This document shows, one piece after another, positions 360-39,040 of a DNA stretch of 64,000 nt (position 1 is its first letter; each line of letters opens with the position of its first letter). The notes below the pieces were generated by a model, which saw only the letters and a program-made list of their open reading frames with translations, was not told the DNA's origin and searched no databases. The stretch comes from Actinomycetota bacterium (GTDB taxonomy: Bacteria > Actinomycetota > Geothermincolia > Geothermincolales > RBG-13-55-18). The stretch spans positions 124,616-188,615 of the forward strand of contig QZKE01000033.1 of assembly GCA_003598015.1 (NCBI GenBank), given 5' to 3'. Made by a program: the position numbers and the translations under genes.

Positions 360-782
360 CTATAGTCGTTTAGGCAGCCGCGTCTTTGCCCAATCCATGA
401 ATCTTTGAGCATCCAAGACGATCTCCCGTGCTTCTCTCTCTGTCATGCGCTTTTCCTCGTATTCAACCCTGCTCTTCTTCGCGATTACGGTTCCAAGGCG
501 TTTGGCCGCTTTTTGTGCATCCTCTTCCTTGAACCGGGACTGCAGGACTCTGACTGCGTCTTTATGGTCTTGGCTCGCTGGTCTTATCCCCCTCAGGGCG
601 ATGAGCAGTGCATCGTTTGCTGAAATGGCGCAGTGTACGGCGTTGATGCCTGCGGCCTCCCAATGTCCTTCTTGCAGTGCTTCATTCATCGCGTGCGCAC
701 ATTGCTGAGCCCTGTCCCAGAAGATACCGGCCATGGATTTGTCGGTGCGCTTCGTCTGCGGTTCTTTCCCCATAATTACCAT
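360..782 (-). CDS. HEPN domain toxin-like protein (partner of upstream nucleotidyltransferase)
   Basis: 140 aa; helical; R-x5-H motif (RPASQDH); stop TAG at 360; 7-nt gap after upstream MNT gene. Confidence 0.75.
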   Translation of the reverse strand: MVIMGKEPQTKRTDKSMAGIFWDRAQQCAHAMNEALQEGHWEAAGINAVHCAISANDALLIALRGIRPASQDHKDAVRVLQSRFKEEDAQKAAKRLGTVIAKKSRVEYEEKRMTEREAREIVLDAQRFMDWAKTRLPKRL

Positions 783-789
783 TCCACTT

Positions 790-1380
790 TCAGGGACCTA
801 TCAGGATACCTGTCTCCGCGATCTCCCTCCACAGGCCACGCCTGGCATTCTTCTTGCGCTCATACTCTGAGCTCGTAACGGACACTGCTGATACCTGGTT
901 TCCGAAATGTTTTGCTACCCGCAAAGACGCTTCCGAGACATCGTCTTCCTTGACCGAGAGATCAACCTCGTCTGAGAATACGAGGACAAGGTCTAAATCG
1001 CTATTCGGGATTTCCTCGCCCCTTGCTACACTACCGAACAGGATTATCGCCAAGAGATCCTGTCCAATCTCGTCGGAAAAAATACTTGCCACTTCTCCGA
1101 GAAGATCCTCTTCAAGCTCGAATGCAGGGGATAAGACCCTAGTGAAAATGATGTTATCTTGATCCAGGGAATACATATTCGACCTGCCGGCTTGCTGCTT
1201 TACGACCAGGCCGTGGCGCTCGAGTTCTTCTAGCGCATAGCGGGTCGTATTGTGAGACTGCCCGATCAGCCTTGCCAGCTCTCTTCCCGTATGAGCGCTT
1301 CTCGTTCTGGAAAGAAGCCTCAGGAGTCTGACCTGAGTCCTGTTGCCCAAGATGTCGTCAAGTGGCTCGTGAAACCTCAT
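790..1380 (-). CDS. Nucleotidyltransferase (MNT) domain protein with N-terminal winged-HTH; antitoxin-like partner of HEPN gene
   Basis: 196 aa; N-terminal wHTH (RLLRLL...GRELARLIG); GS-x9-12-D-x-D motif (FGSVARGEEIPNSDLDLVLVF). Confidence 0.8.
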   Translation of the reverse strand: MRFHEPLDDILGNRTQVRLLRLLSRTRSAHTGRELARLIGQSHNTTRYALEELERHGLVVKQQAGRSNMYSLDQDNIIFTRVLSPAFELEEDLLGEVASIFSDEIGQDLLAIILFGSVARGEEIPNSDLDLVLVFSDEVDLSVKEDDVSEASLRVAKHFGNQVSAVSVTSSEYERKKNARRGLWREIAETGILIGP

Positions 1381-2440: not shown

Positions 2441-3049
2441 TCACGAGAAAGCGATGCCGTTGAACAGGGTCCCGATTACTGTTTTCTTGAGCCGCTCGAT
2501 ATTATCGGGCGAGAAACCGTCCTCGCCGGTGAGCATGGAGTAGACCTGTCCCGCGAAGAAATAAAAACTGGTCATCCCGAAGACGTTGAAGACCAGGAGG
2601 TGGATATCGTGCTTCTGGAGTCCGTTCTGCTCTGTGCCGCTCTCTTCTAGTGTCCCCGCGACCTCGTTGAAAACCGGAACCCAGAAGTTGGATATCAGCT
2701 CGTCCACCGTGTGTTCTCCCTCCAGCATCATCCCTTCGGCGAGGATGCGGGGAAGCCCGGGATGATCCGCCCAGAAGTCGATGAGGAGCAGTGCCAGCAT
2801 GCGAACCTGCTCCTTGAATTCGGATGCCTCCTTGATGCGATCCAGGACGGCGGTTTTTAGCTGGTTGAAGCGGTACACGATAAGGGAGTTGTAGATGTCG
2901 CCTTTGCTCTTGAAGTAATTGTAGAGGCCGGGGGTCTTGATGTTCACTCCCTCGGCTATCTCCCTCAAGGTCGAACCCTTGAAGCCCTTTTCGGAGAATA
3001 GCGCTTCGGCGACCAGCAGTATCTGCTCCCGCCTGTCCACTCCTGCCAT
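2441..3049 (-). CDS. TetR/AcrR family transcriptional regulator
   Basis: N-terminal HTH (ILLVAEALFSEKGFKGSTLREIAEGVNIKTPGLYNYFKSK), 202 aa. Confidence 0.85.
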   Translation of the reverse strand: MAGVDRREQILLVAEALFSEKGFKGSTLREIAEGVNIKTPGLYNYFKSKGDIYNSLIVYRFNQLKTAVLDRIKEASEFKEQVRMLALLLIDFWADHPGLPRILAEGMMLEGEHTVDELISNFWVPVFNEVAGTLEESGTEQNGLQKHDIHLLVFNVFGMTSFYFFAGQVYSMLTGEDGFSPDNIERLKKTVIGTLFNGIAFS

Positions 3050-3224
3050 TCTCTCAGCCGCCTTTCGCCGCCTTCCGGCTACAACAACCGTCGATCAGGT
3101 CAGTCCCTTCCTGGCCCAGCCAGGTGAACACCGGTCTTTCCACGCTATATTTAAGCAGGTAGGACAGGAGGATGTACAGCGCCGACGGTGCGACCCGGAG
3201 GCTTCTTTCCAGAGCGTCTTCGAG

Positions 3225-4031
3225 TCATCGGAACCTCATGTTGTAGGTGCGCAAGAACCATGCTATCCCGGTCAGCCCCACCGGGAACATATACTTGAGC
3301 AGGTTGATATCCATCCTGACCACCCTCATGGGCAGGGGGTTGTCGAAGTCAGCCACATACTCCCTCAGCGGGTCGAGGAGGGAGTGGTCGATTGCGAGTG
3401 TCCCGAGGGCCGTCCTGGATTCGTATATCACCTCCCCGAGCCTGAAACACCAGACCGGATTGAAGAAGAAGAGCTGCCCGGGCCCACCGACGTTGAACGC
3501 CTTCGCTCCCAGCACGAATTCGGGGCGTTCCTCGCTGCCGGTTATCTCCGCGTCGATAGACAACAGCATGGTACCCTTTCGCTCGACATCCGCGGTAACC
3601 CTGCCTCCCGTCTCGTGGTAGCGGATGACCGCCATCTTTTTCGGGCACGAGAGCAGTTCCCGGCCGAGTATGAGGGCGGTGTCGTCGTCCACGACCATCC
3701 AGGCCACATGCCCGCCCTCGCCGAACGGAGACCGCACGAAGAAAGAGAGGGACGCCTCGTTATAGGGCGGGCAATAGGCCGCCCTCTCGTAGCTGACTAC
3801 GAACAGCCTGGCCATCGCCGGGTCGGCCGGCCTGAGCCCCAAGGGAAGGATACCGGCTACCTTATCCCTTCTTACCGGGAGGTCGACCAGCACCATGCGC
3901 GCGTTCCTGACGATGCTTTCACCGGGCTTGAACATGGAGATGAGCGAGCGGCGGAGCGCCGCAAACGCCGGCTTCTCAGCGATCGGGAACGGGATATCCT
4001 TGCCGAAAGGCAGCTCTTTTTCCCTTTTCAT
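3225..4031 (-). CDS. Acetoacetate decarboxylase (ADC)-like family protein
   Basis: 268 aa; ADC-like signature PYNEA...G..G...WMVVDDDTALILGRE...PKKMAVI; 4-nt overlap with upstream paralog. Confidence 0.5.
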   Translation of the reverse strand: MKREKELPFGKDIPFPIAEKPAFAALRRSLISMFKPGESIVRNARMVLVDLPVRRDKVAGILPLGLRPADPAMARLFVVSYERAAYCPPYNEASLSFFVRSPFGEGGHVAWMVVDDDTALILGRELLSCPKKMAVIRYHETGGRVTADVERKGTMLLSIDAEITGSEERPEFVLGAKAFNVGGPGQLFFFNPVWCFRLGEVIYESRTALGTLAIDHSLLDPLREYVADFDNPLPMRVVRMDINLLKYMFPVGLTGIAWFLRTYNMRFR

Positions 4032-4870
4032 GCTGGTCCCTCCCGGCTCGGCCCGGGTTGGCGCGATACCAGCCCGGCAGCGGCGAGCGCCCTCCCGAGA
4101 AGTGGCATGGAGTAGCTCTCGGGCCCGTAGAGAACGGCCTGAACGCGCGGGAAGTAGAGCCCCGCGAGGGCGATGGGCGCGATTATCGCCTGCGAGATCT
4201 CGCGGCCGATGGCGCTTGCCGTGTTGATATGCAGCGAAACCGACCTGGGACCGATCCCTATGGCACCCTCTATCACATTCGCCTTTATCTCCGCGAACTG
4301 GGGCTTGCGATACTGGTAAAGGTCCGCCACCAGCAGCATCTCGCCCAGATTCCGCCCGGAGGCCTTCGCGCAGGAGATGGATAGTATGCGTTCCCCGTCA
4401 CGGCCGAGGGCGCACTCCAGGGTGTCGCCTGAATCCGTGAACTCGATATCGGCGATGAACTTGGGGAAGTTATAGTTATCGACTCCGGCCTTCAAAGCCA
4501 CCTCCGTGGTCACCGGAAGCCGCACGACGAAAGCCGAGAAGAAACGGTCCACCGCCTGCCTGAGAAGGTTATATCCCGGGAAACCCGCATACAGGGGCGA
4601 GTTGGTGAGGACCGCGACCGCGAATTCGTTATAGGGCCCGATATCCGTGTCCCGGTATTCGAAGGCTCCCAGCAGAAGGCCTCCGACACCCGGCATTATC
4701 TGGGCCGCCTTGAACCTGGGGTCGGGCAGCAACCGTCTCAACTTCATGATGTTCGCCGGGAGAAGGGCCCCGAGAGCGCGGGCTTCTCTATAGAAAAGGG
4801 GCAACTTCCCCTTGACTCCGGGGATGAACTCGACGTCGATCTGCTCTATGTCAGTAAAGAAGTCATTCAC
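4028..4870 (-). CDS. ADC-like family protein (paralog of 3225..4031)
   Basis: GTG start at 4870 with GGGAGGTG 8 nt upstream. The longer track ORF (to 5212) overlaps the acyl-CoA dehydrogenase gene. Motif VTTEVALKAGVDNYNFPKFIADIEF resembles the neighbouring paralog. Confidence 0.45.
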   Translation of the reverse strand: MNDFFTDIEQIDVEFIPGVKGKLPLFYREARALGALLPANIMKLRRLLPDPRFKAAQIMPGVGGLLLGAFEYRDTDIGPYNEFAVAVLTNSPLYAGFPGYNLLRQAVDRFFSAFVVRLPVTTEVALKAGVDNYNFPKFIADIEFTDSGDTLECALGRDGERILSISCAKASGRNLGEMLLVADLYQYRKPQFAEIKANVIEGAIGIGPRSVSLHINTASAIGREISQAIIAPIALAGLYFPRVQAVLYGPESYSMPLLGRALAAAGLVSRQPGPSREGPA

Positions 4871-4920
4871 CTCTCGACACCTCCCGTTGCATCTACCGGC
4901 CTCGCGGTATGCGAGGCGCG

Positions 4921-6174
4921 CTAGAAGTAGTCCTCCATTCTCCTGGGATATTCTTCCGCCAGCACTTTTCCGCCGTACGCCTGGAGCACCTCGTTGTTGC
5001 CGTCCCCAATCATCGCCGACCTGGCGTCCCGGAAGAGCTTCTCCACGAAACCTTCCTCGGTGAGCCCGTACCCGCCGAGGATCTGCATCGCCTCGCTCGC
5101 CACCTCGAACGCAAGCTGGGTGCAGAAGGTCTTGGACGCCAGCGAGTACTCCGGGAGCGGGGGGGAGATGTTCAGGTTGAGATCGATGACCGACCGCGAG
5201 AGCGCCCTGCACGCCTCCACCTTGGCGAACATCTGAAAAAGCCGCTGCCTCACCGATCTATGCTCGATGATGGGCGCGCCGCCCTGGACCCTCTCCCTGG
5301 CATACTGGAGCGCCTCCTCGAACGCCGCCCTGGCGATGCCTACGACACCGATCCCGAGGGCCGCGTTGGCGGAGGACAGGATCAGCTCCAGCATCTCCGG
5401 GTAGTAGTCGGGCTCGCAGAACATGTATCGCTTCGGTATGCGCACGTCGTCGAAGTAGATCTCGCCCTGGTTCAGGTCCCGGCACCCCATCTTGGCCAGC
5501 GGCTTTCCCCTGGAAACCCCGTCCCTGTCCAGCGGGCAGATGCAGATACCCCCTCCCGCCATGCCGAGGGAGGGGTCGACCTGGCAGAACAGCAGCGCGT
5601 GCGTGGCTATGGTGCCGCCGGATACCCAGGCGGACTTCTGCCCGTTTATGACCCATTCGTCTCCTTCGAGTCTGGCCTGGACGTTGTTGCGGATGTCGGG
5701 GTTCCGGAAGAAATCCTCGCAGCCGAAATAGTCACTCCCGTGGTCCGGCTCGGTTATCGCCCAGCATCCCCGGATGCTCCCGTCCCTGCACGAGCAGAAC
5801 GGTATCACGAACTCCTCTATCAGCTCGTCGTCCGCGGTGAGGCAGGCGGCGAAGAAGGGCACGCAAGAGGCGGCGATAAGCGTGCCGAGACCGGCTCCAC
5901 CCCATGCTATCTCCTCGAAGATAAGGTTGATCTGGTGGGGCGACAGACCGAGGCCGCCGTACTCCTCGGGAAGGAGTATCGTGTGGTAGCCGAGCTCGTA
6001 AGCGGTTTTCAGAAAATCCCAGAGAGGAGAATCCTCCGCGATCCCTTCCTCCGGGCTCATGGCGTCGAGCCGGCGCGAAGCGGGCCTTACTACCTCCTCG
6101 GCGAAGGTATGCGCCGCTCGTTTGATATCGAGGTCCTCGTCAGTGAGCTTCTCGTAGATATCGAAATAATCCAT
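4921..6174 (-). CDS. Acyl-CoA dehydrogenase family protein
   Basis: ACAD-family hallmarks across the length (WITEPDHGSD..., C-terminal GGYGLTEEGFVEKLFRDARSAMIGDGNNEV); ATG at 6174 with AAGGAG 8 nt upstream. Confidence 0.85.
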   Translation of the reverse strand: MDYFDIYEKLTDEDLDIKRAAHTFAEEVVRPASRRLDAMSPEEGIAEDSPLWDFLKTAYELGYHTILLPEEYGGLGLSPHQINLIFEEIAWGGAGLGTLIAASCVPFFAACLTADDELIEEFVIPFCSCRDGSIRGCWAITEPDHGSDYFGCEDFFRNPDIRNNVQARLEGDEWVINGQKSAWVSGGTIATHALLFCQVDPSLGMAGGGICICPLDRDGVSRGKPLAKMGCRDLNQGEIYFDDVRIPKRYMFCEPDYYPEMLELILSSANAALGIGVVGIARAAFEEALQYARERVQGGAPIIEHRSVRQRLFQMFAKVEACRALSRSVIDLNLNISPPLPEYSLASKTFCTQLAFEVASEAMQILGGYGLTEEGFVEKLFRDARSAMIGDGNNEVLQAYGGKVLAEEYPRRMEDYF

Positions 6175-6225
6175 CTCATATCTCCTTGGCTCCAGGTCGC
6201 CGCACCGCTTTTCGCGGGCGGTCAC

Positions 6226-6633
6226 TCACACTTCCGTGGGGAGGTCATACTTGCGGCAGTATTCCAGGTAGACTTTGTTCGCGGGTTTGAGAAGCGGGAG
6301 AAGCTTCATAACCTTGGGGACCGGCCCCCGGGTCTTCACCTGCCTCGTCGCCAGCGCCTTGGCGACGTTGAGTTTCTTGAGCCAGAACAGGTGTACGGTA
6401 TCCGCGGACATGGTGAGCGTGAGGACGGGGTCCATGGCGTTGGCCTCGGAGTCCCACCTGATCCCGTCCTCGTCGATATACATCGAGAATTCGGGATCGC
6501 TCACCCGAAAAAGCGCCGTCAGCCCCGTCTCCTTCAACTTGGCTCCAACATCGGGATGTTCCAGGAGTTCGCTCCAGAACTCTCCGAGAACCTGCCTCGC
6601 CTGCTCAGCATCCCTGTAGTAACCCATATCCAT
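6226..6633 (-). CDS. SCP2 (sterol-carrier-protein-2-like) lipid-binding domain protein
   Basis: C-terminal segment LFWLKKLNVAKALATRQVKTRGPVPKVMKLLPLL resembles the SCP2 signature; immediately upstream of the ACAD gene; start uncertain (TTG at 6699 in track). Confidence 0.5.
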   Translation of the reverse strand: MDMGYYRDAEQARQVLGEFWSELLEHPDVGAKLKETGLTALFRVSDPEFSMYIDEDGIRWDSEANAMDPVLTLTMSADTVHLFWLKKLNVAKALATRQVKTRGPVPKVMKLLPLLKPANKVYLEYCRKYDLPTEV

Positions 6634-6746
6634 CCCCCCAATCCACGAGAACATCGAACACGCAAACGGATTATTGTCTTGTTTCAACCCCCTTCCCAAG
6701 CCCGAATTCCACTATCGGTTGGCAACGCGCATGAAACGGAGCTTAC

Positions 6747-6787: not shown

Positions 6788-6926
6788 CTTGAGGATATGT
6801 CAAGAGCTTTTCCGGAATCCTCTGCCCACACTTCTTGGAGAACTTGATAGAATTACCATGTTCGGCTGGAAGATATGGGAAGATGTCCAAGTACGTCTGT
6901 GTCGGGAAACAGGAGGGCAGGTGGCG

Positions 6927-7523
6927 ATGGCGGACTACGTTCTCGTGCACGGTGGCCATAAGGACGGGAGCATATGGGACAAAGTAGTCCCACTGCTGGA
7001 AGAAAAAGGCCACAGGGTGTGCGCACCCTCCCTTCCCGACGCGGAGACCTCGATCCTTGAAGAGTTCATCTCCGCAGTTTGCCGGCTCCTCGAGGACGAA
7101 GGCCTGCATGACATCGTCCTCGCCGGCCACAGCTCCGGAGCTTTGACCATCACGGGCGTCGCGGACAGGATGCCCGAACGTGTCGGTCACCTCGTGTACG
7201 TGGACAGCTCGGTCCCCATTGTCGGCAAATCGCTCTACGGCATGTTCGAAGACCTGGGCATTTCCCCCGCGCAATACGACCTCCCGCAGGACCCCCCGTG
7301 GCTCGAGCCCCTGTATTTCGATGCAGAGAAGATCCGCAGGATACCTAAGACCTATGTTTTCTGCACGCAAGGCGAGTTCAAAGCGGTTGCCGAGCCTTTT
7401 TACGAGAAGGTCAAGCGGAACGCGGAACGGGACGGCTGGAATTACTATGCCCTGGACTCAGGCCACGAATGCATGGTATCCCATCCGGCCGAGCTCGCGC
7501 ATATCCTGCTCGCCCAAGGCTAG
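6927..7523 (+). CDS. Alpha/beta hydrolase fold protein (esterase-like)
   Basis: MADYVLVHGG...LAGHSSGA nucleophile elbow GHSSG; ATG at 6927 with AGGAGG about 10 nt upstream. Confidence 0.8.
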   Translation: MADYVLVHGGHKDGSIWDKVVPLLEEKGHRVCAPSLPDAETSILEEFISAVCRLLEDEGLHDIVLAGHSSGALTITGVADRMPERVGHLVYVDSSVPIVGKSLYGMFEDLGISPAQYDLPQDPPWLEPLYFDAEKIRRIPKTYVFCTQGEFKAVAEPFYEKVKRNAERDGWNYYALDSGHECMVSHPAELAHILLAQG

Positions 7524-7612: not shown

Positions 7613-8281
7613 CTACCGGACCCTCCGCCCCTTCTTGTATCTGAAGTCACAACGTTCTGCCCCCTCGGCGAGCGTCGTCGTGCGCACCAGGCCCGTGCCC
7701 TGGTATTCGCTGATGATGAAGTCCTGCTCGCACATGTACGGGATCAGTTCGGCGGCGCCCTGTTTCTCGAAGAACTTGCATATGCCACACTCCGTGAAAT
7801 CCCATCCCCAGTCGAAGCTCCCCGGCTCGCCCGCGACGAAATCGAAGACCCAATCCCCGGGATAAAGCCTCTTGTGCGATTCCCGGGAGACGACTTCCTG
7901 CACCCCATACCATTCCGGGGTGAACTGCTGTTCTCCCTGGGCAATCTGGATCTCCTGCGGGACGGCGCGGCAGGCGATATCCGCGGCATCCAGGATCACC
8001 TGCCCAGCATCGCCGGTCGTCATGCCGAGATCCTTCAGCGCCCGATAGAAGGAGAGCGCGACGGCGCTCTCGATCAGATCCCTGGCCAGCGGGTACTGTA
8101 AGCTCCCGACGAAAGGTATATCGGGTACCAGGGCCGCGAAGTCCGCGCTGGCGCGGGAGAGCACCCGGTCGACGCTCTCCCCTCCCAACGCCTTTGCGGC
8201 CGCTGCGCGGTAGTAAGGCAGGAGCTCGGTGAAAACCGCGTCAAGCTCTTCCCGCTCGTACGATTCTTTCATCTCATCCAT
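7613..8281 (-). CDS. L-2-amino-thiazoline-4-carboxylic acid (ATC) hydrolase-like family protein
   Basis: 222 aa; C-terminal FDF...CGICKFF...ELIPYMCEQD resembles the ATC-hydrolase-like family; last gene of a 3-gene minus-strand operon. Confidence 0.45.
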   Translation of the reverse strand: MDEMKESYEREELDAVFTELLPYYRAAAAKALGGESVDRVLSRASADFAALVPDIPFVGSLQYPLARDLIESAVALSFYRALKDLGMTTGDAGQVILDAADIACRAVPQEIQIAQGEQQFTPEWYGVQEVVSRESHKRLYPGDWVFDFVAGEPGSFDWGWDFTECGICKFFEKQGAAELIPYMCEQDFIISEYQGTGLVRTTTLAEGAERCDFRYKKGRRVR

Positions 8282-8303
8282 GGCTGCTCCCGGACAACGA
8301 TCC

Positions 8304-9470
8304 CTAGACCCAACCGCGCTTGGCCATGTAGTTGACCATGGGCTCGGCCAGTCCCGATCCGTACATGAGGGGAAGCATCTTCACGAAGAGGGGAAGGCTG
8401 GTCACCTTCATCACCGGGTTGAGTTTGCCGAAGCCGAGCCCTCTTTTTTTCGCCAGTTCCGACAGCATATTGAGGTAATTCGCCGGCACCGGCGCCGTTT
8501 CCCTGGCGACCAGCGACAAGGCATGCTGCGCACAGGTGGAGACACAGAGGCCGCAACCGATGCACCTGGCGAGGTCGATCTCGACCCTGCCGTCCGTCTC
8601 GGAGATCGCCTCCATCTGGCAGCGCTCCAGGCACACCCCGCATGCGGTGCAGCGTTCAGGGTATTTCCTGACCAGGAAGGCGGAGCGGACGTAATCGGCG
8701 GGCCTGTCGTGTACCTTCAACATGCGCAGCAGAGCGCAGCAGCACGAGCAGCAGCAGCACATGTGCACGATGTCCCGGCTGTTGGTGGGCATGAGTATCA
8801 TCGCGTTCTCATCGGCGCGATCGACGATCTTCAGGGCCTCGTCGATGCTTATCTCCCGCCCCTTGCCGGTGCGTATCATGTGATCGGCCCCTATGCCGAA
8901 ACTCAGGCAGGTCTCGTGCGGCTTCTCGCATTCATTGCCCAGCAGGCCCTGCTGCTTCTTGCAGATACATTCCGCCACGGCGGCCAGTTTCTGTTTCTTG
9001 ATGATCTCCCTGGCCTTGTCGAAGCTGGCGATGGATGAGGTGGGGTCCACGGCGGCGCCTACGGGCACCACGCGGTGCTGCTGAAGGACCGCGTCGCCCA
9101 GGTGTTTCTCGAATTCCACTACCATCTCCGCCAGTTCGCGGTCGATGGTGTCTACGAAGAACTCGAGGAAGCCTACCTGGTACTGCGTCGCCTGGTAGAA
9201 ATCGTGCTTGCCACTGTGGATCCTGATGATGAGTCCCGTCTGTGCCATCTCGGCGAGTTTCTCGGCGGCCCGTTCCTCGGACATCCCCCACCGCTTCGCG
9301 ATCACCGCGGGCGGTTCGGGGAACAGCCGCAACTGCATGGTAAGGCGGGCATCCTCCGGCGTGAACATCTTCGCCAGGATCTTCAGTTCCACCCCGCTCT
9401 CGGTCGAGGGGAATCCTCCCGGCGTTCTATCCAGATACTCTCGCAGTCGGGTGTAGGTTTCCTCCGGCAT
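8304..9470 (-). CDS. Iron-sulfur protein: N-terminal helical/wHTH-like region, poly-Cys tract (HMCCCCSCCC) and C-terminal 2x[4Fe-4S] ferredoxin domain
   Basis: CTACGVCLERC and CIGCGLCVSTC CxxCxxCxxxC motifs; additional CxxxC...C cysteines; RBS AAAGGAGAGG before ATG 9470. Confidence 0.7.
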   Translation of the reverse strand: MPEETYTRLREYLDRTPGGFPSTESGVELKILAKMFTPEDARLTMQLRLFPEPPAVIAKRWGMSEERAAEKLAEMAQTGLIIRIHSGKHDFYQATQYQVGFLEFFVDTIDRELAEMVVEFEKHLGDAVLQQHRVVPVGAAVDPTSSIASFDKAREIIKKQKLAAVAECICKKQQGLLGNECEKPHETCLSFGIGADHMIRTGKGREISIDEALKIVDRADENAMILMPTNSRDIVHMCCCCSCCCALLRMLKVHDRPADYVRSAFLVRKYPERCTACGVCLERCQMEAISETDGRVEIDLARCIGCGLCVSTCAQHALSLVARETAPVPANYLNMLSELAKKRGLGFGKLNPVMKVTSLPLFVKMLPLMYGSGLAEPMVNYMAKRGWV

Positions 9471-9563
9471 GGCCCCTCTCCTTTCTATTGAAAGATCTCT
9501 CCTGACAGGGAAGACCCGGACCGTGCGATATCGCGAACCCCATGGCGTCCTCGTTCTATATAC

Positions 9564-10781
9564 TCATCCGGCCGCGACGATAGCCAGCGCTTCGACCGGG
9601 CAGATGGTGATGCAGGCACCGCAGCGTTCGCAGAGCTCCAGGTCGATCAGCGGCTTGCCGTTGTCCATGGTTACCGCGCCGTAGATGCAGGAAGCGCACT
9701 TGCCGCAGCCGTTGCATTTATCCTCGTCGAGGACGGTATGCAGGGTCTGGGGAGGAACGGCTCCCGTCATGAACTGCACCACCAGCTCTTCCATGTTGTC
9801 GATGTGGGGAACCGCGAGCCCCACCATATCCGGGACCCGTTCGTAACCCTTGCGTTGCATGAAACGGGTCAGGCCGCCCAGGATCTCCTCGAAGATCCGG
9901 TAGCCCCTGTACTGCACCGGGCTTTCCAGGGCGGCTATGGTCGCACCACACATGATGCGCTCGACTGCATCCCTCCAATTCCATATACCCCCACTGCTGA
10001 TGATCTGCAGGCCGGTATCGTTCGCGGATAGGAATATGGCGTAGTTGCACAAGCCCCGCAGCCAGCGGCCGTAGCCGAAGGGTACGGTAAGGGGGGGTCT
10101 CGCCGTCTCGATATCCAGGAAGGTAACCCGGAAGTCACTGTAAGTATGCATCGCCGCCGCGCCCAGGCCCCGCATCGTCTCGAGGTAGCCCCGCCAGAAT
10201 ACGTCGTGGTTGAAGCCCAGTTTGAGCCAGAACGGCACGCGGAGGTGGCCGTCGAGCGCCTTGAATACGGCCGGGATGGCCTCATCCACGAAGGAAGCCG
10301 TCTCGCCCGCGCTGCAGGACAGGCCGCAGGTGCAGACCACCTCTATAGCCTCCGCTCCCGCCTCCTCCATCTGCAGGGCCATCTCCCGCAGCGTCACCTC
10401 AGATGGCGGCGAGACGGTCTCGAAGGGCGGCAGACCGGTCCACGGCCCTATGTAGAAGAAGCTGCCGATGAGCCGCGTATCCTCCCTCTCGGCCACGGGC
10501 TTCACGGTGCTGATGTATTCCAGCGCGTTCTCGAGCGGCAGGATGCCGGCATAACAGTGCATGAGGCTGCCGCGGTCACCTATCCTGTCGCAGAACCAGT
10601 TGCCCGGGCGGGGAAGAAGCTGCGTCAGCTCATCCAGCCCGACGCTCTTTACGATGACCGCGCCTGCGCCGGCTTCGATACAGCGCTGGATCGTGTAGGG
10701 TGTCGAAGTGATGGCACCCGCGGCGGCGGCAATCGGATTCTTCATGCGCATTCCGGCGAATTCGATCTCGAGATCAGCCAT
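9564..10781 (-). CDS. Dihydroorotate/dihydropyrimidine dehydrogenase (PreA)-like TIM-barrel flavoenzyme with C-terminal 2x[4Fe-4S] domain
   Basis: N-terminal LKNPI..AAG-type motif (MRMKNPIAAAAGAI), SSGGI motif, C-terminal CNGCGKCASC...CERCGACITICP; ATG at 10781 with GGAGGTG RBS. Confidence 0.75.
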   Translation of the reverse strand: MADLEIEFAGMRMKNPIAAAAGAITSTPYTIQRCIEAGAGAVIVKSVGLDELTQLLPRPGNWFCDRIGDRGSLMHCYAGILPLENALEYISTVKPVAEREDTRLIGSFFYIGPWTGLPPFETVSPPSEVTLREMALQMEEAGAEAIEVVCTCGLSCSAGETASFVDEAIPAVFKALDGHLRVPFWLKLGFNHDVFWRGYLETMRGLGAAAMHTYSDFRVTFLDIETARPPLTVPFGYGRWLRGLCNYAIFLSANDTGLQIISSGGIWNWRDAVERIMCGATIAALESPVQYRGYRIFEEILGGLTRFMQRKGYERVPDMVGLAVPHIDNMEELVVQFMTGAVPPQTLHTVLDEDKCNGCGKCASCIYGAVTMDNGKPLIDLELCERCGACITICPVEALAIVAAG

Positions 10782-10955
10782 TTCCCTGCACCTCCCCTTT
10801 CGAGACGTCGTCGCGGTCCGGCCTGTGAGTCCGGGACCTCCGTCCGCTTCCCGGGGCCGTTCCACGCCGTTCCCTCGAGCCTTCACCCACGCAGACTGTA
10901 TATCTATATCCCGGGAGGCCGAGCGGAGGACCAGCCCTGATGGTCCGCTTCCCGT

Positions 10956-11624
10956 TCAGGCTCTCCCCTCCAGCTGCTGTTGCAGGAGCGCGTTGACCCC
11001 CGCGAGCAAGAAAGTCACGGTCTGATCAGAGATCTCCGGGATACGGTCGGATTCATCCCGCCATATCAGGTAGTGATAGGCGACCTGCGCATAGAGGCCG
11101 ACGGTCAGTACGGCGATCAATTCCATGAGAGGGGCGGAGATGACGATATCGCCCTCGCGCCGGCAGACCTCTTCCAATCCGCCCTGGATATCCGCGGTGA
11201 GTTTCTCGAACAACTGCTTCCTCTGTTCCTCGACCTCCGCGCCCTGGCCGACCGTCTCGCGGAAGAGGATGGTCGCCTTTTCGGGATAGCGGCTGCAGAA
11301 GTCCAGCAGAAAGACCTGGCCGACCTGGCAGAAATCCGCGAGCGCGAAATCGGAACTCCGCAGCCCGCCGGCGAGCGATTCACGCAGGAGGTATACACAA
11401 TCGTTCATCAACCTGATCAGCAGGTCTTCCTTGTTCTTGAAGTAGAAATAGATGGTGCCGGTCGAAAACTCCGCCAGGTCCGCTATATCGCCCATGCTCG
11501 CTGTCTGGTAGCCTTTTTGAGCGAACAGCTTCTCGGCGGCGGCGAGGATAGCCGCGATACGCTGTTCCTTCTCGCGTTGCTTGCGCAGCGTTCTGCGCGG
11601 AACTTCGGGCTCTGAAGCAGGCAT
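10956..11624 (-). CDS. TetR/AcrR family transcriptional regulator
   Basis: HTH AAILAAAEKLFAQKGYQTASMGDIADLAEFSTGTIYFYFKNKEDL. Confidence 0.85.
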   Translation of the reverse strand: MPASEPEVPRRTLRKQREKEQRIAAILAAAEKLFAQKGYQTASMGDIADLAEFSTGTIYFYFKNKEDLLIRLMNDCVYLLRESLAGGLRSSDFALADFCQVGQVFLLDFCSRYPEKATILFRETVGQGAEVEEQRKQLFEKLTADIQGGLEEVCRREGDIVISAPLMELIAVLTVGLYAQVAYHYLIWRDESDRIPEISDQTVTFLLAGVNALLQQQLEGRA

Positions 11625-12093
11625 GGAACCCCACCTCGTAAGGGCGATCTTATGCCCCGGTCGGTGCTGCGTATGTTGCGTTATAGATATGCCATATAAT
11701 TTTAAACTGTATTAGAAAAATAAATCAGATTATAGATATTGTCAACAGACAGCTATTGCGGCTGAAAGGCAGGGTACCTACGGGATGATTGCCAGTGGAC
11801 GGTATGCAGATTGCCGTCATGCGCATCAGACAAGGCTGCATCGTCATGCGCGGAGGTTGCGGCCCCACAGCGGGAGGAATGCTGCACAGGCAGCCTTCAG
11901 GTCAGGTGCCCCACCGCTGGCGTCTCGATATAACATCTTCTTAAGGGTGGCGTAACAGATCCTTCACATGGAATCCGACTTATACAATAGATCAATCAAG
12001 GCGCTGCGATGGCGGGTCGGCGCGGGTATGATACCTCCGCCGGACCGGCCTAGCGGGCGAGCCGAGGCCATGAGGTGGCGGGGAGGGATCACC

Positions 12094-13566
12094 GTGAGTA
12101 AGAAAGCGGCGAAAACGAGCATGTTCATAGCGGCCCTAGCGTCAGCCGTCATCGCGGTGGCGTGCGTCACGGTTTTCGTGGCGCTGCGGGGCCCGGACGG
12201 GGGAGGGGGAGAGGCCACGTCCTACTACCAACTGCGCGTCGAGCTTACGACCAGATCGGACGGCGCCGAGCTCGAGCCCGCGCGGACGGCTGAAATCCTC
12301 AGCGTGAGAGAGGTCGGGGTTCAGGGTAAATGGGAGAAAAAGGGCGTGTCCATGCTCCGCGTGTGGGTGCAGAGGGACGGCGCCGCGTCGGCGGAGGAAG
12401 TCGTGGGCATCACCGCCGACTATGCCATCGACCCAAGCGCCCTCGGCCGGCCTTTTGCCTTCAGCCTGCATGCGGCAGGACCGGAGGGTTGCGCCTTGCG
12501 CGTGACCGGGGCGGGCGATGGAGAGGAGGTGGAGCTGGCGGTGGTGGAGCACGCCGGCGCCGAGCCCCTCGAGTTTCAAGTCGAACTCTCGCCCCTGGGA
12601 GGTTCGCCTCCCCTCGTAGACGAAACGGAGTCGCGGTCCTCGTCCATGGCCCTGGCCTTCTACTACCCCTGGTACGATTCCACGCGCAACTGGGACAGCC
12701 CTGCCCTGCAGGACCGTCCCGCACAGCCGTATGTCTCCGCAGACCGCGCGGCCATGGAGCGGCACGTCGAGCAGGCCCGCGAGGCGGGGATCGACGGTTT
12801 CCTGGTCTCCTGGTGGGGCCCCGGCTCCTACACCGACGAGAACCTGGCGTTGCTCCTGGACGTGGCGGAGGAGAGCGGGTTCTCCATCGCCATCAACTTC
12901 GAGACCCTGCGAGGCGACAGCCCGGCCGGGAACCCACAACCCCTCCCGCCCGACGAGATCTTCGCCTGGATGAGGTACGCGCTAACCAGCTACGGCGATC
13001 ATCCCGCCTATCTCAGGATCGACGGAGAGCCTCTCATCGCCGTTTGGGCGTCCCAAGCGGTACCCCTCGACGACTGGGAGCGCGTCTTCGCCGAACTGGA
13101 GGCGCGGGGGCTCGAGGCCTTCTGCCTGGCCGAGTTCGGAGGCGATCACCCCAAGACGGACGTCCTGGAGGTCTTCGACGGGCTGCACACCTACAATATA
13201 GTGGGCATGGCGGGGGGAGACGGGGGGATGGATCAACTCGCCTCCATTTATGCCGATACCGGGCGCATGGTCAGGAACTACCACCTCCTGCAGGAGGAGG
13301 GAGCCCCCCGCAAGCTGTGGGCAGCGACCGCCCAACCCGGGTACGACGACCATCTCATACCAGGCCGTCCGGGGGTAGTCCTCCCGCGTGAGGACGGGGA
13401 GACCTACCGCGCGAGTTTCGAGGCGGCGCTGGCGAGCGGTCCCGACTGCGTGTTCATAACCTCGTGGAACGAATGGTGGGAGCATACGTATATCGAACCG
13501 AGCGAAGCCTACGGGGACCTTTATCTCAGCATAACCGCCGAGTGCCTGGGGGCGTGGAGGGAATGA
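12094..13566 (+). CDS. Membrane-anchored/secreted glycoside hydrolase family 99-like (endo-alpha-mannosidase-like) protein
   Basis: N-terminal signal anchor (KKAAKTSMFIAALASAVIAVACVTVFVAL); GH99-like motifs AFYYPWY, GIDGFLVSWWG, FITSWNEWWE; GTG 12094 with GGGGAGGG RBS (ATG 12070/12118 alternatives). Confidence 0.55.
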   Translation: MSKKAAKTSMFIAALASAVIAVACVTVFVALRGPDGGGGEATSYYQLRVELTTRSDGAELEPARTAEILSVREVGVQGKWEKKGVSMLRVWVQRDGAASAEEVVGITADYAIDPSALGRPFAFSLHAAGPEGCALRVTGAGDGEEVELAVVEHAGAEPLEFQVELSPLGGSPPLVDETESRSSSMALAFYYPWYDSTRNWDSPALQDRPAQPYVSADRAAMERHVEQAREAGIDGFLVSWWGPGSYTDENLALLLDVAEESGFSIAINFETLRGDSPAGNPQPLPPDEIFAWMRYALTSYGDHPAYLRIDGEPLIAVWASQAVPLDDWERVFAELEARGLEAFCLAEFGGDHPKTDVLEVFDGLHTYNIVGMAGGDGGMDQLASIYADTGRMVRNYHLLQEEGAPRKLWAATAQPGYDDHLIPGRPGVVLPREDGETYRASFEAALASGPDCVFITSWNEWWEHTYIEPSEAYGDLYLSITAECLGAWRE

Positions 13567-14464: not shown

Positions 14465-15202
14465 ATGGAGCCTCAGGCGGGTCTGTTGCAGGCGGGGATG
14501 GAAGAGAGGAGCGAGGCGGTATGGCAGGCGATGCGCGCCGCCTACAAGTCGGGCCTTATGGACGAGATGCTCGACCTCGCCGGTGCGCTTATGCCTCCCG
14601 ATATGGATCAGATCGAGATGATGGGAGAGGCCGAGGAGCGATTGATGCAGGCCGATCTGGCCGCTACGGCCGGGATGATGGACGAGATGCTCATCCCGCT
14701 GGCGCGCGTCATGGCCAGGGAAGAGGTGGTGGAGGCGATGAAGTCACTCCTGCTCACCTTCAAGCCGGCCATCATGGGCGCCGTGTCGGCGTCGGGAGGA
14801 GATGTCACATTGCTGAGGGAAAGGCTCCAGGCCGTGCAGGCGAGCCTGCTGGCCTTGCGTCCCGTGGCGCAGGTGGCGGCGCCGGCCGCCCTGCAGGCCG
14901 CCTCTCCACGGCTGGAGGGTTTCCTCCTGGATAAAGCCGGTCCCGCGGTGGGCAACATGATAAACGCGCAGTGCGCCGGCCTGAACCACCTCATCGAGAC
15001 CAACCCCCGGGCCATCCCCGCTTTTCTGCGAGGGGTGGCGGAGACCGTCGACAGCGCGGAGATGAGAAAGGCGGCCTCCGCGCTCTTTGGTATCCTCCTC
15101 GCTCACAGGCCCAAGCCGCTCAAGTGGCTGGTGCGGGAGATAGCGATGCGCACGAGGAAGCGCTTCGGAGCTGCGAAGGGAGGGGCGCGTGATGACGGCT
15201 AA
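14465..15202 (+). CDS. Hypothetical helical protein (Met/Ala/Leu-rich, no recognised domain), first gene of the GlcD/F/E-like operon
   Basis: 245-aa ORF with RBS AAGGGG; coding-type GC3; overlaps next gene by 11 nt. Confidence 0.5.
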   Translation: MEPQAGLLQAGMEERSEAVWQAMRAAYKSGLMDEMLDLAGALMPPDMDQIEMMGEAEERLMQADLAATAGMMDEMLIPLARVMAREEVVEAMKSLLLTFKPAIMGAVSASGGDVTLLRERLQAVQASLLALRPVAQVAAPAALQAASPRLEGFLLDKAGPAVGNMINAQCAGLNHLIETNPRAIPAFLRGVAETVDSAEMRKAASALFGILLAHRPKPLKWLVREIAMRTRKRFGAAKGGARDDG

Positions 15203-16646
15203 GAGCGATTGCGTGAAGATCGTAGGCGAAGAGAGCGTGCTCGCGGACAAGAAAATCCTGGCCTCCTTCGCCCGCGATGACGGCGGCAGCCAGGGGTCGC
15301 CTCCGGCCTGCGTGGTGAAACCCCGCAGCGCGGAGGAGGTACGCGAAATCGTGCTCATGGCCAACGCCAGGGGTTATGCGCTGGTGCCCGTCTCCTCCGG
15401 CGAACCGCACTCCCGCGGCGATACCGTGCCCGCGACGGAGGGCGCGGTGATCGTCGACCTCTCGGGGATGAAGCGCGTGCTGCGTATGGACCGGCGCAAC
15501 AAGGTGGCCATGGTGGAGCCGGGAGTGACCTTCGGCGAGTTGAGGGACGCCGCCGCGCAGGAGGGATTGCGGGTGCTCACTCCCCTGCTTCCCCGCCCCA
15601 GCAAGTCGGTACTGGGAAGCGCCCTGGAGAGGGAGCCCATGCTCATCCCCAAGTACCACTGGGATATGACCGACCCCCTCATGTGCGTGGAGGTCGTGTT
15701 CGGGACGGGCGACGTCTTCCGCACCGGCTCGGCTGCCGGCCCCGGCACCCTGGAGGAGCAGTGGGCCGTCGGGTGCGCCCAGAAGAATCCCATGGGGCCG
15801 GGACAGACCGATTTCCTGCGCCTCGTCCAGGGTTCCCAGGGCAGCATGGGCATCGTGACCTGGGGCACGGTGAAACTGGAATTGCTGCCCGGCGTGGAGA
15901 AAGCCTTCCTCGTCACGGCGGACGAATTCGGCGCGCTGCAGGATTTCGCCTACACCATCCTCAAGTTCAAGCTCCCGGATCTCTGCCTCATCCTCAACGG
16001 CGCCGCTCTTGGCGCCATAACGGAAAAGGGCGGAGGGGATATGCCCCCCTGGACGCTCGCCTATTCCATTTCCGGCTATACCTACATGCCGCGGGAGAGG
16101 GTGGAATACCTGGAGAAAGACGTCGCGGATATCGCTTCCGCGGCGGGGGTCAAACCCGCGCGCACCGCGGGGGACGTCGATGCCGGCGAGCTGGCCCGCA
16201 TGATGGGCGCGCCGTGCCCGCCGCCGCACTGGAAGACGCGCGCCAGGGGCGCCTGCCGGGAGGTCTTCTTCCTCACCACCCTGGACAGGGTGCCCGCGTT
16301 CCTGGCGGCGGTGGATGGGGAGATGTCCGCGCACGGCTTCGATGCCCGGGACCTGGGGGTCTACGTGCAGCCCATCCGCCAGGGGACCGGATGCCACCTG
16401 GAAATGGACTTCTTCTACGACCCGGGAAGCGAGGAGGATACGCGAAAAGCCAGGGCGCTCCACGAGGGCGTCAGCCGCGCCTGCATCGAGATGGGAGGTT
16501 TCTTCTCGCGCCCCTACGGCGGCTGGGCCGACCTGGCCTACGGGCGCGCGCCGGATGCCGTGGCGGCGCTTGCCAGGATAAAGGACATCCTCGACCCGCG
16601 CGGCGTGATGAACCCGGGCCGCCTCTGCTTCGGGAAGGAGGGATAG
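15192..16646 (+). CDS. FAD-binding oxidoreductase (FAD-linked oxidase, GlcD-like)
   Basis: PCMH-type FAD-binding region (VVKPRSAEEVREIVLMANARGYALVPVSSG); C-terminal oxidase domain; GGGAGGGG RBS 7 nt before ATG 15192. Confidence 0.85.
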   Translation: MTAKSDCVKIVGEESVLADKKILASFARDDGGSQGSPPACVVKPRSAEEVREIVLMANARGYALVPVSSGEPHSRGDTVPATEGAVIVDLSGMKRVLRMDRRNKVAMVEPGVTFGELRDAAAQEGLRVLTPLLPRPSKSVLGSALEREPMLIPKYHWDMTDPLMCVEVVFGTGDVFRTGSAAGPGTLEEQWAVGCAQKNPMGPGQTDFLRLVQGSQGSMGIVTWGTVKLELLPGVEKAFLVTADEFGALQDFAYTILKFKLPDLCLILNGAALGAITEKGGGDMPPWTLAYSISGYTYMPRERVEYLEKDVADIASAAGVKPARTAGDVDAGELARMMGAPCPPPHWKTRARGACREVFFLTTLDRVPAFLAAVDGEMSAHGFDARDLGVYVQPIRQGTGCHLEMDFFYDPGSEEDTRKARALHEGVSRACIEMGGFFSRPYGGWADLAYGRAPDAVAALARIKDILDPRGVMNPGRLCFGKEG

Positions 16647-16649
16647 GCA

Positions 16650-17918
16650 ATGGCTTTACAGGATATGGAAAGGGATATGGCGGGCTGTTCCAGGTGCTCG
16701 AGCTGCAAGTGGATACCCCACAACCAGGTCAAGAGCTGGAGGTTCGCCCAGGGGTGCCCCTCCAGTACCCGCTACAGCTTCCACGCTTACTCCGGCAGCG
16801 GCAAGATGATCATGGGGCTCTCCATGCTGCAGAGCCGCAGCGAGCTCAACGACGACGTGGCCGGCATCATCTATAACTGCCAGCTCTGCGGCTCTTGCCA
16901 GGTCTCGTGCCAGGTTTACCGGGACGACATCGACCTTTCCGACGTGCTCCTCGAGCTGAGGGCGAAGTGCGTGGAAGACGGCTTCCTCATCCTCGAGCAC
17001 ATGGAGATGCTGCAGTCCATGAAGAAGGAGGACAACCCCCTGGGCATGCTCAAGGCCGACCGCGGGAGGTGGGCGGAGGGGCTGGGCCTGCCGGAGATCG
17101 GCGGGCGCCAGGTGGAGGTGCTCTTCCATGCCGGTTGCCGCTACTCCTACGACGAAGACCTGCGCGGGACGGTGAGGGGTACGGTCTCCCTCCTGCGCGA
17201 TGCCGGTATAGATATCGGCGTGGCGGGGAAGGATGAGGCTTGCTGCGGCGGCAGGGCCTACGAACTGGGTTACCAGGGAGAGATGCGCAACTTCGCGGAC
17301 GACATGGCCGGCCGGGTCAAGGCCTCCGGCGCCCGCACGCTGGTCACGGCATGCTCCGACTGCTACTACACCTTCATGTACCTCTACCCCAAGAATGGAT
17401 TGGACCTCGGGGTCGAGGTGCTGCATATCACCGAGCTGGTAGGCCGCATGATCGAGGAGGGGAGGATCGAGCCCGCCGGCGAAGTGCCCATGCGCGTGAC
17501 CTATCACGATCCCTGCCACCTGGGCCGGCGGGGCGAGTCGTACAAGGAGGGCTGGAGCGGCGGCGACAAGCTGCTGCGGCCGGTACGTTTCAAGCAGAGC
17601 GGGCGTCTGGGTGTGTTCGACCCTCCGCGGGACATCATCAGGGCGCTGCCCGGAATCGAGCTGGTCGAGATGGAGCGCATACGTGAATACTCCTGGTGCT
17701 GCGGCGCCGGTGGCGGCGTGCTCGAGGCTTTCCCCGAGTTCGCTTCCTGGACGGCGGGAGACCGCCTGGAGGAGGCAGCGGCCACCGGGGCGGAGGCGCT
17801 GGTCACCGCATGTCCCTGGTGCGTGAGGGTGTTCCGGGACGCCGTGACGGAGCGGGGCATGGAGATGAAGATCTACGACGTGATGGAACTGCTGGCGTCG
17901 TCACTGGGAGGTGCTTGA
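16650..17918 (+). CDS. (Fe-S)-binding protein, GlcF/heterodisulfide-reductase-like with two CCG cysteine-rich domains
   Basis: CSRCSSC...C and CQLCGSCQVSCQ ferredoxin-type motifs; two CCG-type cysteine-rich repeats (AGCRYSY...ACCGG; ACSDCYY...HDPCHLGR; WCCGAGGG). Confidence 0.85.
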   Translation: MALQDMERDMAGCSRCSSCKWIPHNQVKSWRFAQGCPSSTRYSFHAYSGSGKMIMGLSMLQSRSELNDDVAGIIYNCQLCGSCQVSCQVYRDDIDLSDVLLELRAKCVEDGFLILEHMEMLQSMKKEDNPLGMLKADRGRWAEGLGLPEIGGRQVEVLFHAGCRYSYDEDLRGTVRGTVSLLRDAGIDIGVAGKDEACCGGRAYELGYQGEMRNFADDMAGRVKASGARTLVTACSDCYYTFMYLYPKNGLDLGVEVLHITELVGRMIEEGRIEPAGEVPMRVTYHDPCHLGRRGESYKEGWSGGDKLLRPVRFKQSGRLGVFDPPRDIIRALPGIELVEMERIREYSWCCGAGGGVLEAFPEFASWTAGDRLEEAAATGAEALVTACPWCVRVFRDAVTERGMEMKIYDVMELLASSLGGA

Positions 17919-17919
17919 G

Positions 17920-32593: not shown

Positions 32594-32935
32594 TTTGGCA
32601 CCTCCCGGTGGTAATGCACGGTTCCGCCCGTGCCGAGAGACGTTGAAAACGCACTTGACCATAGCATAACGCATGTTCGCATCCGAGTGGTGGAGAATGG
32701 CCGGCATTTTATGGTGCTGCATTACCTTCCAATCCCCTCTCGTCCCCCCGTGGTGTTTGCGTCCCGCATTCCTGCCACTCCTTCCCGTTCAAGCCGGGAA
32801 GGGTCCGGAAAATACCATCCACCTCACCGCGGGCGACCTTGGTTTGCATGCCGGCGATATACTGGCAGGGGCTCCGATGCAATAATAGAGGCATGCCGTT
32901 ACCATTGCAGGCTCTCAGGTGAGGAGGGAGGGGGC

Positions 32936-35959: not shown

Positions 35960-36148
35960 TTATCAATGAGAGCCTTCACTTCCTGAGGGCTGACGTAAGG
36001 GGGGTAGAACGTACCCGACTCCGATCAATTGCCCCAGGCGTAATGGTAAGAATGAGCCTGGGGTCAGAATGTGAGGATCTACTGGCTAAATGACCGGAGA
36101 TCACACCGGACAGGGCTACGCCCTGGCTGCGTTATTCTCAATCTTCGT

Positions 36149-36799: not shown

Positions 36800-36971
36800 C
36801 ATCACAACCACCTGTTTTGGATTTGCCGCCCTATTGCTTTGATTATATACAGTGAGGGAATCCTATGCCTAGCATGTAGGATACGTATACAGTGCCATCT
36901 TTGCGGCTCTCTTTGAATCTGAGTCCTGCTAGGGTACATCTATATCCAGGATCACACGGGAAGGGCGTAAG

Positions 36972-37038
36972 TTGACGTTAGAATCGATATGTTCTATAGT
37001 TAACTGATATATATACTATATTGTTAGTTTACAATAGG
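36972..37038 (+). promoter_or_regulatory. Promoter for arsR-nifS-dsrE operon (TTGACG 36972-77, 17-nt spacer, TATAGT 36995-37000) followed by TATTGT-N6-ACAATA inverted repeat (putative ArsR operator)
   Basis: Read from sequence immediately 5' of ATG 37050. Confidence 0.4.
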
Positions 37039-37049
37039 TTCAGGTAGAG

Positions 37050-37370: not shown

Positions 37371-37371
37371 A

Positions 37372-38900: not shown

Positions 38901-39003
38901 CACTTATTCAGTAGAGTGGGCGGAAACGGAGGCAGACCGTTACCCGATCGGCAAGTCATTTGGTTGACCTTGATTTGTGTAGGAATATTCTGGTAAGCGC
39001 ATC

Positions 39004-39040
39004 TGCCTCGAAAGGCGTTTCGCTTTGCCGCGGGCTTTGC
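39004..39040. repeat. Left copy of imperfect direct repeat TGCCTCGAAAGGC...GGGCTTTGC flanking the HepT/MntA + TIR-gene islet
   Basis: Matches 43592-43616 (TGCCTCGAAAGGCaccGGGCTTTGC); left copy has a 12-nt internal insertion. Confidence 0.45.

Follow-up and report, generated by a model that had tools for sequence, protein, structure and literature searches.

A TetR-flanked gene cluster for a probable flavoenzyme and an iron-sulfur protein from an uncultured actinobacterium, and the large family of Cys-rich proteins to which it points

The described systems closest to the locus considered here are PreA of the Escherichia coli PreTA enzyme and domains IV-V of mammalian dihydropyrimidine dehydrogenase (DPD; PDB 1gt8), in which a barrel is followed by a C-terminal domain with two [4Fe-4S] clusters, together with the class 1 dihydroorotate dehydrogenases (DHODs; PF01180; Lactococcus lactis DHOD A and B), which belong to the same superfamily. 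A gene of this kind, here called A, is found downstream of a tetR gene on the minus strand of a 64,000-nucleotide stretch from an Actinomycetota bacterium (assembly GCA_003598015.1, contig QZKE01000033.1, positions 124,616 to 188,615; hereafter the window), where it is followed by a gene for a Cys-rich iron-sulfur protein (B) and by a gene matching the Pfam model for L-2-amino-thiazoline-4-carboxylate (ATC) hydrolase (C). A preliminary description of this DNA had proposed that the three proteins form a module in which a heterocycle is reduced and then opened hydrolytically. In our analysis, the cluster is a lineage-specific arrangement of an uncultured anaerobic actinobacterium and not a conserved ring-reduction and ring-opening pathway. 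It is a variant of flavin/iron-sulfur oxidoreductase systems, and its chief value is that it points to the family of protein B.

The cluster consists of four genuine co-directional open reading frames (ORFs), encoding the TetR-family regulator (10956..11624, 222 aa), the DHOD/DPD-fold protein A with its C-terminal 2x[4Fe-4S] domain (9564..10781, 405 aa), the multi-domain iron-sulfur protein B (8304..9470, 388 aa) and the PF14196 protein C (7613..8281, 222 aa), all on the minus strand. The preliminary description had placed the three genes downstream of tetR at these positions, and the public gene calls of the same contig (metagenome contig JGI 3300007354 Ga0104761_1000014; NCBI locus tags C4536_) agree with the ORFs, giving the same four protein lengths. 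The A and C proteins were retrieved at 100% identity from public entries; the best match of B in the protein search was 87% identical, although the gene calls of that contig include B, a discrepancy that is probably an indexing quirk and not biological. The spacers measure 174 nt between tetR and A, 93 nt between A and B, and 22 nt between B and C; a scan of the intergenic gaps between A, B and C detected no terminator-like site, and A starts with an ATG preceded by a GGAGG-type ribosome-binding site. A convergent alpha/beta hydrolase gene (6858..7523, plus strand; Abhydrolase_6/1) bounds the cluster. No Rfam family, and hence no known riboswitch, was matched between positions 6000 and 13000, and no paralogue of A, B or C was detected elsewhere in the window. 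Statements below that a gene is absent near the cluster cover the genes called over 20.7 kb of surrounding sequence (locus L089).

Protein A matches the Pfam DHO_dh model (PF01180) with 53.8 bits, against a cut-off of 27, as well as Fer4 models, which upholds the assignment first made from the sequence. It does not reach the cut-off of the PreA equivalog NF006183 (117.5 bits, cut-off 335) and stays far below every cut-off of the DHOD equivalog and subfamily models. The eight Cys of the C-terminal di-cluster domain (9600..9716, minus strand; CNGCGKCASC...CERCGACITIC; Fer4) are arranged as C356-x2-C-x2-C-x2-C365 and C384-x2-C-x2-C-x3-C394. For the residue mapping, a profile of 20 homologues was aligned to residues 530-844 of pig DPD. 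K45, C152 and K187 of A align with K574, C671 and K709 of DPD, where we take the two lysines to contact the flavin mononucleotide (FMN) and C671 to be the catalytic Cys, and all three are invariant across the 20 homologues together with H212, D223 and Y237. In contrast, DPD Asn609, Asn668 and Asn736, presumably the pyrimidine-binding residues, correspond to Tyr77, Val149 and Ser215 in A, while Thr737 corresponds to Asp216. The retention of the flavin lysines, the Cys and the clusters, together with the replacement of the Asn positions, suggests that A has kept the PreA machinery for flavin, proton donation and clusters, and that its substrate pocket is a different one. Like its homologues, A is probably an FMN enzyme.

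Compared with PreA and DPD, A shares the barrel and the C-terminal di-cluster domain at a similar overall length, and differs from DPD by two short insertions of about 14 residues in total between positions 111 and 127. Unlike PreTA, it has no nearby PreT/GltD-like subunit: no such partner, binding flavin adenine dinucleotide (FAD) and NAD(P)H, is present among the genes called around the cluster. Similarity to the class 1 DHODs extends to the Cys at the catalytic position (profile E-values from 5e-18 to 2e-14), whereas the orotate-binding Asn are not conserved in A and an added di-cluster domain stands in place of the PyrK partner. The clade of A has few members: about 20 clusters reach 63% identity or more, and then identity falls to 39%. 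A metagenome scan with the A alignment was dominated by the ferredoxin pattern and recovered only relatives of at most 37% identity on short contigs with little neighbourhood information, and a literature search for DHOD-like or PreA-like enzymes of this kind retrieved nothing relevant.

The neighbourhood of A and B is shared by near relatives, and that of C is not. A lies directly upstream of B in L085/L086 (B 85% identical), in L087 (87%) and in L001 (77%), with a TetR gene upstream of A wherever the contig reaches and an A-B spacer of about 94 nt, so that the TetR-A-B order and its conserved A-B gap are present in four independent assemblies (the window, L085/L086, L001 and L087). C is absent from all of these related loci, in which B is followed either by an alpha/beta hydrolase and a methyltransferase or by genes on the opposite strand. 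In L085, the alpha/beta hydrolase that follows B was considered as the counterpart of the one in the window and proved to be a remote relative only. B paralogues at 59% and 53% identity stand in unrelated contexts, and none of the 80 GTDB loci with B at 37-48% identity contains an A-type barrel or a C homologue. TetR again precedes an A relative of 30% identity. The complete triad thus occurs in this genome alone; A and B are paired within a single subclade only, and C has been added locally. The preliminary description had made its proposal depend on the co-occurrence of the three genes elsewhere and on the family assignment of C; the co-occurrence failed, as A-B-C was found only here, while the assignment of C held.

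Protein B is the component of the cluster that holds most interest. Its AlphaFold2 (AF2) model has a predicted local distance difference test score (pLDDT) of 92.1 and a predicted template modelling score (pTM) of 0.89, and the protein can be divided into an acidic winged-helix domain as matched by Foldseek (residues 1-95; 9186..9470), a Cys-rich alpha/beta domain (residues 96-262; 8685..9185) and a 2x[4Fe-4S] ferredoxin domain (residues 268-318; 8517..8669), all on the minus strand. The ferredoxin domain accounts for the only Pfam matches above cut-off (Fer4 family models) and superposes on the delta subunit of PFOR with a Foldseek root-mean-square deviation of 1.4 Å. Its two CxxCxxCxxxC motifs (residues 274-313) have all eight Cys conserved in 100% of 111 homologues of 43-87% identity, the set also used below. 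Translation confirms both these motifs (8517-8669) and the HMCCCCSCCC tract (residues 236-245; 8736..8765, minus strand) to which the preliminary description had drawn attention. Within this tract, C238, C240, C241, C243, C244 and C245 are conserved in 93-100% of the homologues and C239 in 74%; therefore, the tract is not a chance feature. The same domain contains C168-x-C170-x10-C181-x6-C188, whose four Cys are conserved at 97-100%, so that 10-11 conserved Cys of B, including those from C238 to C245, lie beyond the ferredoxin motifs.

The N-terminal 95 residues resemble SmtB/ArsR-type and other helix-turn-helix (HTH) regulators in Foldseek (probability 0.98-1.0, with weak E-values of 0.02-0.07), and the HTH matches in Pfam (NirDL-like/MarR) are weak and below cut-off. 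The winged helix has a mean net charge of -3.7 in the 111 homologues and its third helix, with the consensus E.EAAE.LE.MA, one of -2.2 (range -6 to +1), which argues against DNA binding by this domain. For the Cys-rich domain, no Pfam match at E<=0.1 and no PDB match by profile were obtained, and the 50 best Foldseek matches listed, all with E >0.001, include no counterpart of it. A relationship with the CCG domain was also considered, and was set aside on an hhalign probability of 0.2% against the window's own CCG protein and the lack of a PF02754 match. The C-terminal tail of 45 residues, missing in 64 of the 111 homologues, is modelled as three confident packed helices, and its interpretation as a membrane anchor was abandoned.

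PreT's cluster domain, RnfB and the polyferredoxins match B solely in its canonical ferredoxin domain (31.2 bits for RnfB, against a cut-off of 252, the PreT models being likewise below cut-off), and nothing in them corresponds to its winged-helix or Cys-rich domain. Pfam detected no FAD or NAD domain in B, which, lacking a PreT/GltD-like domain of either type, is not an ordinary DPD subunit. We take the CCG domain of HdrB and the CxC motifs of ferredoxin:thioredoxin reductase to be Cys-dense cluster sites, to which B could be compared by analogy only: its adjacent Cys (CC, CxC) exceed what a plain cubane needs, as might be expected of a cluster beside a reactive thiol or disulfide, while the motif spacing differs and no homology is detectable.

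The family of B is very large. An indexed search returned at least 1614 homologues, a profile of the middle domain retrieved 2609 clusters at 50% identity with E<=1e-3 (1588 of them with E<=1e-10), and at least 524 matches were confirmed in GTDB species genomes. The hosts are anaerobic Actinomycetota, Thermodesulfobacteriota, Aminicenantes, Chloroflexota and members of other phyla. Database entries label these proteins just as "4Fe-4S binding protein", and a literature search for a Cys-rich family combining a winged helix with 4Fe-4S motifs retrieved nothing relevant, the poly-Cys motif matching DNA strings only. Some members are natural fusions: P0356 (817 aa) joins an N-terminal FAD-dependent enzyme, similar to amine oxidases and phytoene desaturases, to a full-length B, while in P0046 and P0049 (677 aa) the complete B architecture is preceded by a polytopic membrane domain of some 285 residues at the N-terminus. 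Paralogues of B are found in tandem or nearby in four of about 80 loci (L002, 8001-11612; L006, 6774-9053; L011; L063), and the metagenome-assembled genome (MAG) of the window itself encodes at least three more (P0025/P0026 and P0113). A protein of the NMO family, whose models also match distant A homologues, directly follows B in L006, L021 and L032, and a short-chain dehydrogenase/reductase (SDR) adjoins B in L002. Together with the P0356 fusion, these neighbours suggest that B is a partner of flavoenzymes.

Protein C has a sound family assignment, in agreement with the preliminary description, and a less certain function. It matches PF14196 (ATC_hydrolase) with 73 bits, against a cut-off of 28.1, over model positions 3-145 of 145; its likeness to this family is thus at the level of the Pfam model, over the full length, and not by way of the characterised Pseudomonas enzyme. 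C165, C184 and C211 do not vary among 86 homologues, 85 of which also have E164; three Cys and a Glu would correspond to the zinc ligand set of V4R domains, as we assume it from the MopR/PoxR structures. No PDB relative was detected by sequence. The AF2 model (pLDDT 96.5) is closest to H-NOX (Foldseek E-value 1.8e-4, probability 1.0, with a modest TM-score of 0.36-0.44), followed by Bet3 (E-value 0.03). ATC hydrolase, V4R and HNOB domains have been described as related, with three conserved Cys in common (PMC5847659), and the three invariant Cys of C match this cluster as reported for V4R sensor and ATC-hydrolase domains.

The localization of C also sets it apart from its relatives. An RRxF-like motif is present within the first 45 residues of 46 of the 86 C homologues and an N-terminal extension, often with a terminal lipobox, in 50 of them, which suggests that the homologues bearing these features are exported. 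The window C has neither motif nor extension and no signal peptide; it appears cytoplasmic, in contrast to a subfamily made up mostly of exported proteins or lipoproteins. No ATC pathway context (N-carbamoyl-L-cysteine amidohydrolase or similar) was found among the genes called in L089, and no carbamoylase, dihydropyrimidinase, hydantoinase or amidohydrolase was called there either. Composition gives no sign of a recent transfer of C, its GC content at third codon positions (GC3) being 0.80 against 0.81-0.83 for A and B. In both contigs read, C homologues of 47-49% identity lie away from A and B. In one of these, the otherwise unrelated L091 (4065-6840), an alpha/beta hydrolase 60% identical to that of the window lies within 1.3 kb of a C homologue with 47% identity, two genes away, so that the functional partner of C may be the hydrolase and not A and B. 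Two further candidates for C homologues were rejected: the 222-aa protein that follows a B paralogue in L088 was ruled out on comparison, and the DUF6125 protein after B in L038 looked similar by eye and showed no relationship by hhalign.

The regulator matches PF00440 (TetR_N) with 61.8 bits and reached the cut-off of no NCBIfam equivalog; its orthologues, 64% identical, are located upstream of A in L001 and L085/L086. The preliminary description had pointed to repeats at 11681-11690 and 11730-11739 as possible operators. Both are present, and the idea gains statistical support, since their 9-mer core, TATAGATAT, occurs in four copies in the window against 0.06 expected, a number reached in none of 100 shuffles. 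Three of the four copies surround tetR: the first (11731..11739, plus strand) overlaps the spacer of a promoter-like site, the second (11682..11690, plus strand) lies about 57 nt upstream of the tetR start, and the third, inverted (10900..10908, minus strand), falls in the spacer between tetR and A. The promoter-like site (11717..11745, minus strand) is of the sigma-70 type, with TTGACA and TATTTT separated by 17 nt, and was recognized by its match to the consensus only (10 of 12 positions). AT-rich stretches containing TTGACA are also present upstream of tetR in all the orthologous loci. The copies around tetR fit a candidate TetR operator. The fourth copy (17207-17215), the only one outside the tetR region, is inside the gene of a CCG-domain protein and probably occurs there by chance.

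Taken together, we tentatively propose, at slightly less than even chances, that A is a non-pyrimidine reductase controlled by TetR and supplied with electrons by B, with C as a lineage-specific accessory; the cofactors, the contact between A and B and the substrate are what we infer here. Acting on a compound other than a pyrimidine, A would reduce a C=C bond adjacent to a carbonyl or carboxylate group, with the hydride coming from reduced FMN, the proton from Cys152 and the electrons arriving singly through its two clusters. B would take the wiring role that the PreT cluster domain has in PreTA, as an electron conduit to a flavoenzyme analogous also to RnfB and the polyferredoxins: its ferredoxin domain would dock on A, electrons would enter at its Cys-rich domain, where the 10-11 extra Cys suffice for one or two additional clusters, and its acidic winged helix would serve as a structural or docking domain rather than a DNA binder. 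C may bind small molecules in the cytoplasm, perhaps as a hydrolase, and would have been gained in this lineage alone. TetR would act at the three ATATCTATA(A/T) sites to repress both its own promoter and that of A, until released by binding of the substrate or an analogue. A more specific idea, which we regard as speculative and likelier to be wrong than right, is that the middle domain of B, with its CxC-x10-C-x6-C and CxCCxCCC motifs, holds a non-standard iron-sulfur centre serving as the electron-entry or catalytic site of a widespread, undescribed class of redox partners or enzymes in anaerobes. In the present case, B would then stand in for the NAD(P)H/FAD subunit of DPD-type enzymes and deliver electrons to a new reductase with a substrate other than a pyrimidine.

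The alternative that deserves most attention is that B is independent of A, which we consider rather unlikely while giving it real weight. B would be a stand-alone iron-sulfur enzyme, with its Cys-rich domain as a catalytic or disulfide/thiol-active cluster site, or else a general redox hub; the adjacency of A and B would be a recent juxtaposition in one actinobacterial subclade, A would draw its electrons from a free ferredoxin, and C would have no relation to either protein. The size and taxonomic breadth of the B family (2609 clusters; at least 524 GTDB matches) would suit such independence, as would the paralogues found within one genome (P0025, P0113) and in tandem. Moreover, several observations weigh against the reading of B as the electron donor of a TetR-controlled A. 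The neighbours of B are heterogeneous: among 86 close same-strand neighbours, no family occurs more than five times (MarR 5, molybdopterin oxidoreductase 4, URO-D 4, NMO 3, TetR 3 and DHO_dh 1). B often lies more than 100 nt from its neighbours, which suits an autonomous function, and it stands alone in L004. A homologues at 69% (L173), 63% (L174, a Dehalococcoidia MAG) and 39% identity (L175) have no adjacent B, showing that A does not need a neighbouring B. The fusion of B with a flavoenzyme is known from one metagenomic protein, and the corresponding spacers of the orthologous loci (L085, L001) lack the exact 9-mer. Against the independence of B, nevertheless, the TetR-A-B order and spacing are kept over 77-87% B identity in four assemblies, and the flavoenzyme fusion and the recurrent flavoenzyme neighbours point to a partner role.

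Two other explanations appear far less probable. In the ring pathway of the preliminary description, A would reduce a pyrimidine-, hydantoin- or thiazoline-like heterocycle with electrons from B, and C would open the ring by hydrolysis; the DPD/PreA fold of A with a residue aligned to the catalytic Cys, the match of C to a model named after ATC hydrolase, the 22-nt gap between B and C and the lack of terminator-like sites between the genes are all consistent with it. As a three-step module, this proposal is not supported: C is missing from every other TetR-A-B locus and its two homologues read in context are not near A or B, the positions corresponding to the three presumed pyrimidine-binding Asn are replaced in A, no carbamoylase, dihydropyrimidinase or hydantoinase gene was called in L089, 46 of the 86 C homologues carry the RRxF-like motif and are probably exported, and the model of C resembles H-NOX and Bet3, a fold best known as ligand-binding. 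We consider it very unlikely. Similarly small is the chance we give to B being a redox- or metabolite-sensing transcription factor, whose winged helix would bind DNA and whose clusters would be the sensor. Such a role would explain the scatter of B beside varied catabolic genes and its many paralogues, an expansion that resembles regulator families, in line with the SmtB/ArsR/MarR-like structural matches of the winged helix and its weak HTH matches in Pfam. It is at odds with the acidity of the winged helix, most marked in the putative DNA-contacting helix, with the fusion of some members to a polytopic membrane domain (P0046, P0049) or a flavoenzyme (P0356), and with the dedicated TetR or MarR regulators already present beside many members.

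Other features of the window concern mostly the surroundings of the cluster. A second TetR-associated operon, of a CoA-ester or lipid catabolic type by its appearance, lies just beyond it on the minus strand (2441-6654) and comprises an SCP2-like gene (6226-6654), an acyl-CoA dehydrogenase (4921-6225), two genes of the acetoacetate-decarboxylase family (4028-4870 and 3225-4031) and the second tetR (2441-3049). On the plus strand, 4 kb from the cluster, there is a GlcDEF- or lactate-dehydrogenase-like trio of FAD_binding_4, Fer4_8+CCG and FAD_binding_4 genes (15189-19572). The same trio, with an acyl-CoA dehydrogenase 40% identical to that of the window and a TetR gene, is found beside the 59%-identity B paralogue in another actinobacterial MAG (L088, 1-4815). 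A GH99/GH71-like glycoside hydrolase gene (11968-13566, plus strand) stands between two tetR genes and seems out of keeping with the redox and CoA-related surroundings; as listed, its ORF includes an N-terminal hydrophobic segment, and the public call is shorter (498 aa). An ORF of 989 aa (32630-35599, plus strand) combines FGGY carbohydrate-kinase and D-2-hydroxyacid dehydrogenase domains, and represents an unusual fusion or, alternatively, two separate genes read as one. Finally, two stretches of low GC content (1-2000 and 36000-40000; 0.51-0.53, compared with 0.61 over the whole window) are possible mobile or defence islands: the first contains a nucleotidyltransferase/HEPN pair (about 360-1380, minus strand) beside a Fic gene located just outside the window start, and the second a class-V aminotransferase/cysteine-desulfurase-like gene (37372-38580), after which comes a TIR-domain gene (40152-41177).

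The heterocycle pathway, if true, would have been a new route of heterocycle breakdown, and the evidence does not support it. The clade of A, which has neither the pyrimidine pocket nor the NAD(P)H subunit, probably reduces something else with low-potential electrons. The main point of interest is protein B, which represents a large, undescribed family with a conserved poly-Cys domain that belongs to no described family or structure. Once the cofactors and partners of B are defined, thousands of genes from metagenomes of the subsurface and of sediments would gain an annotation.

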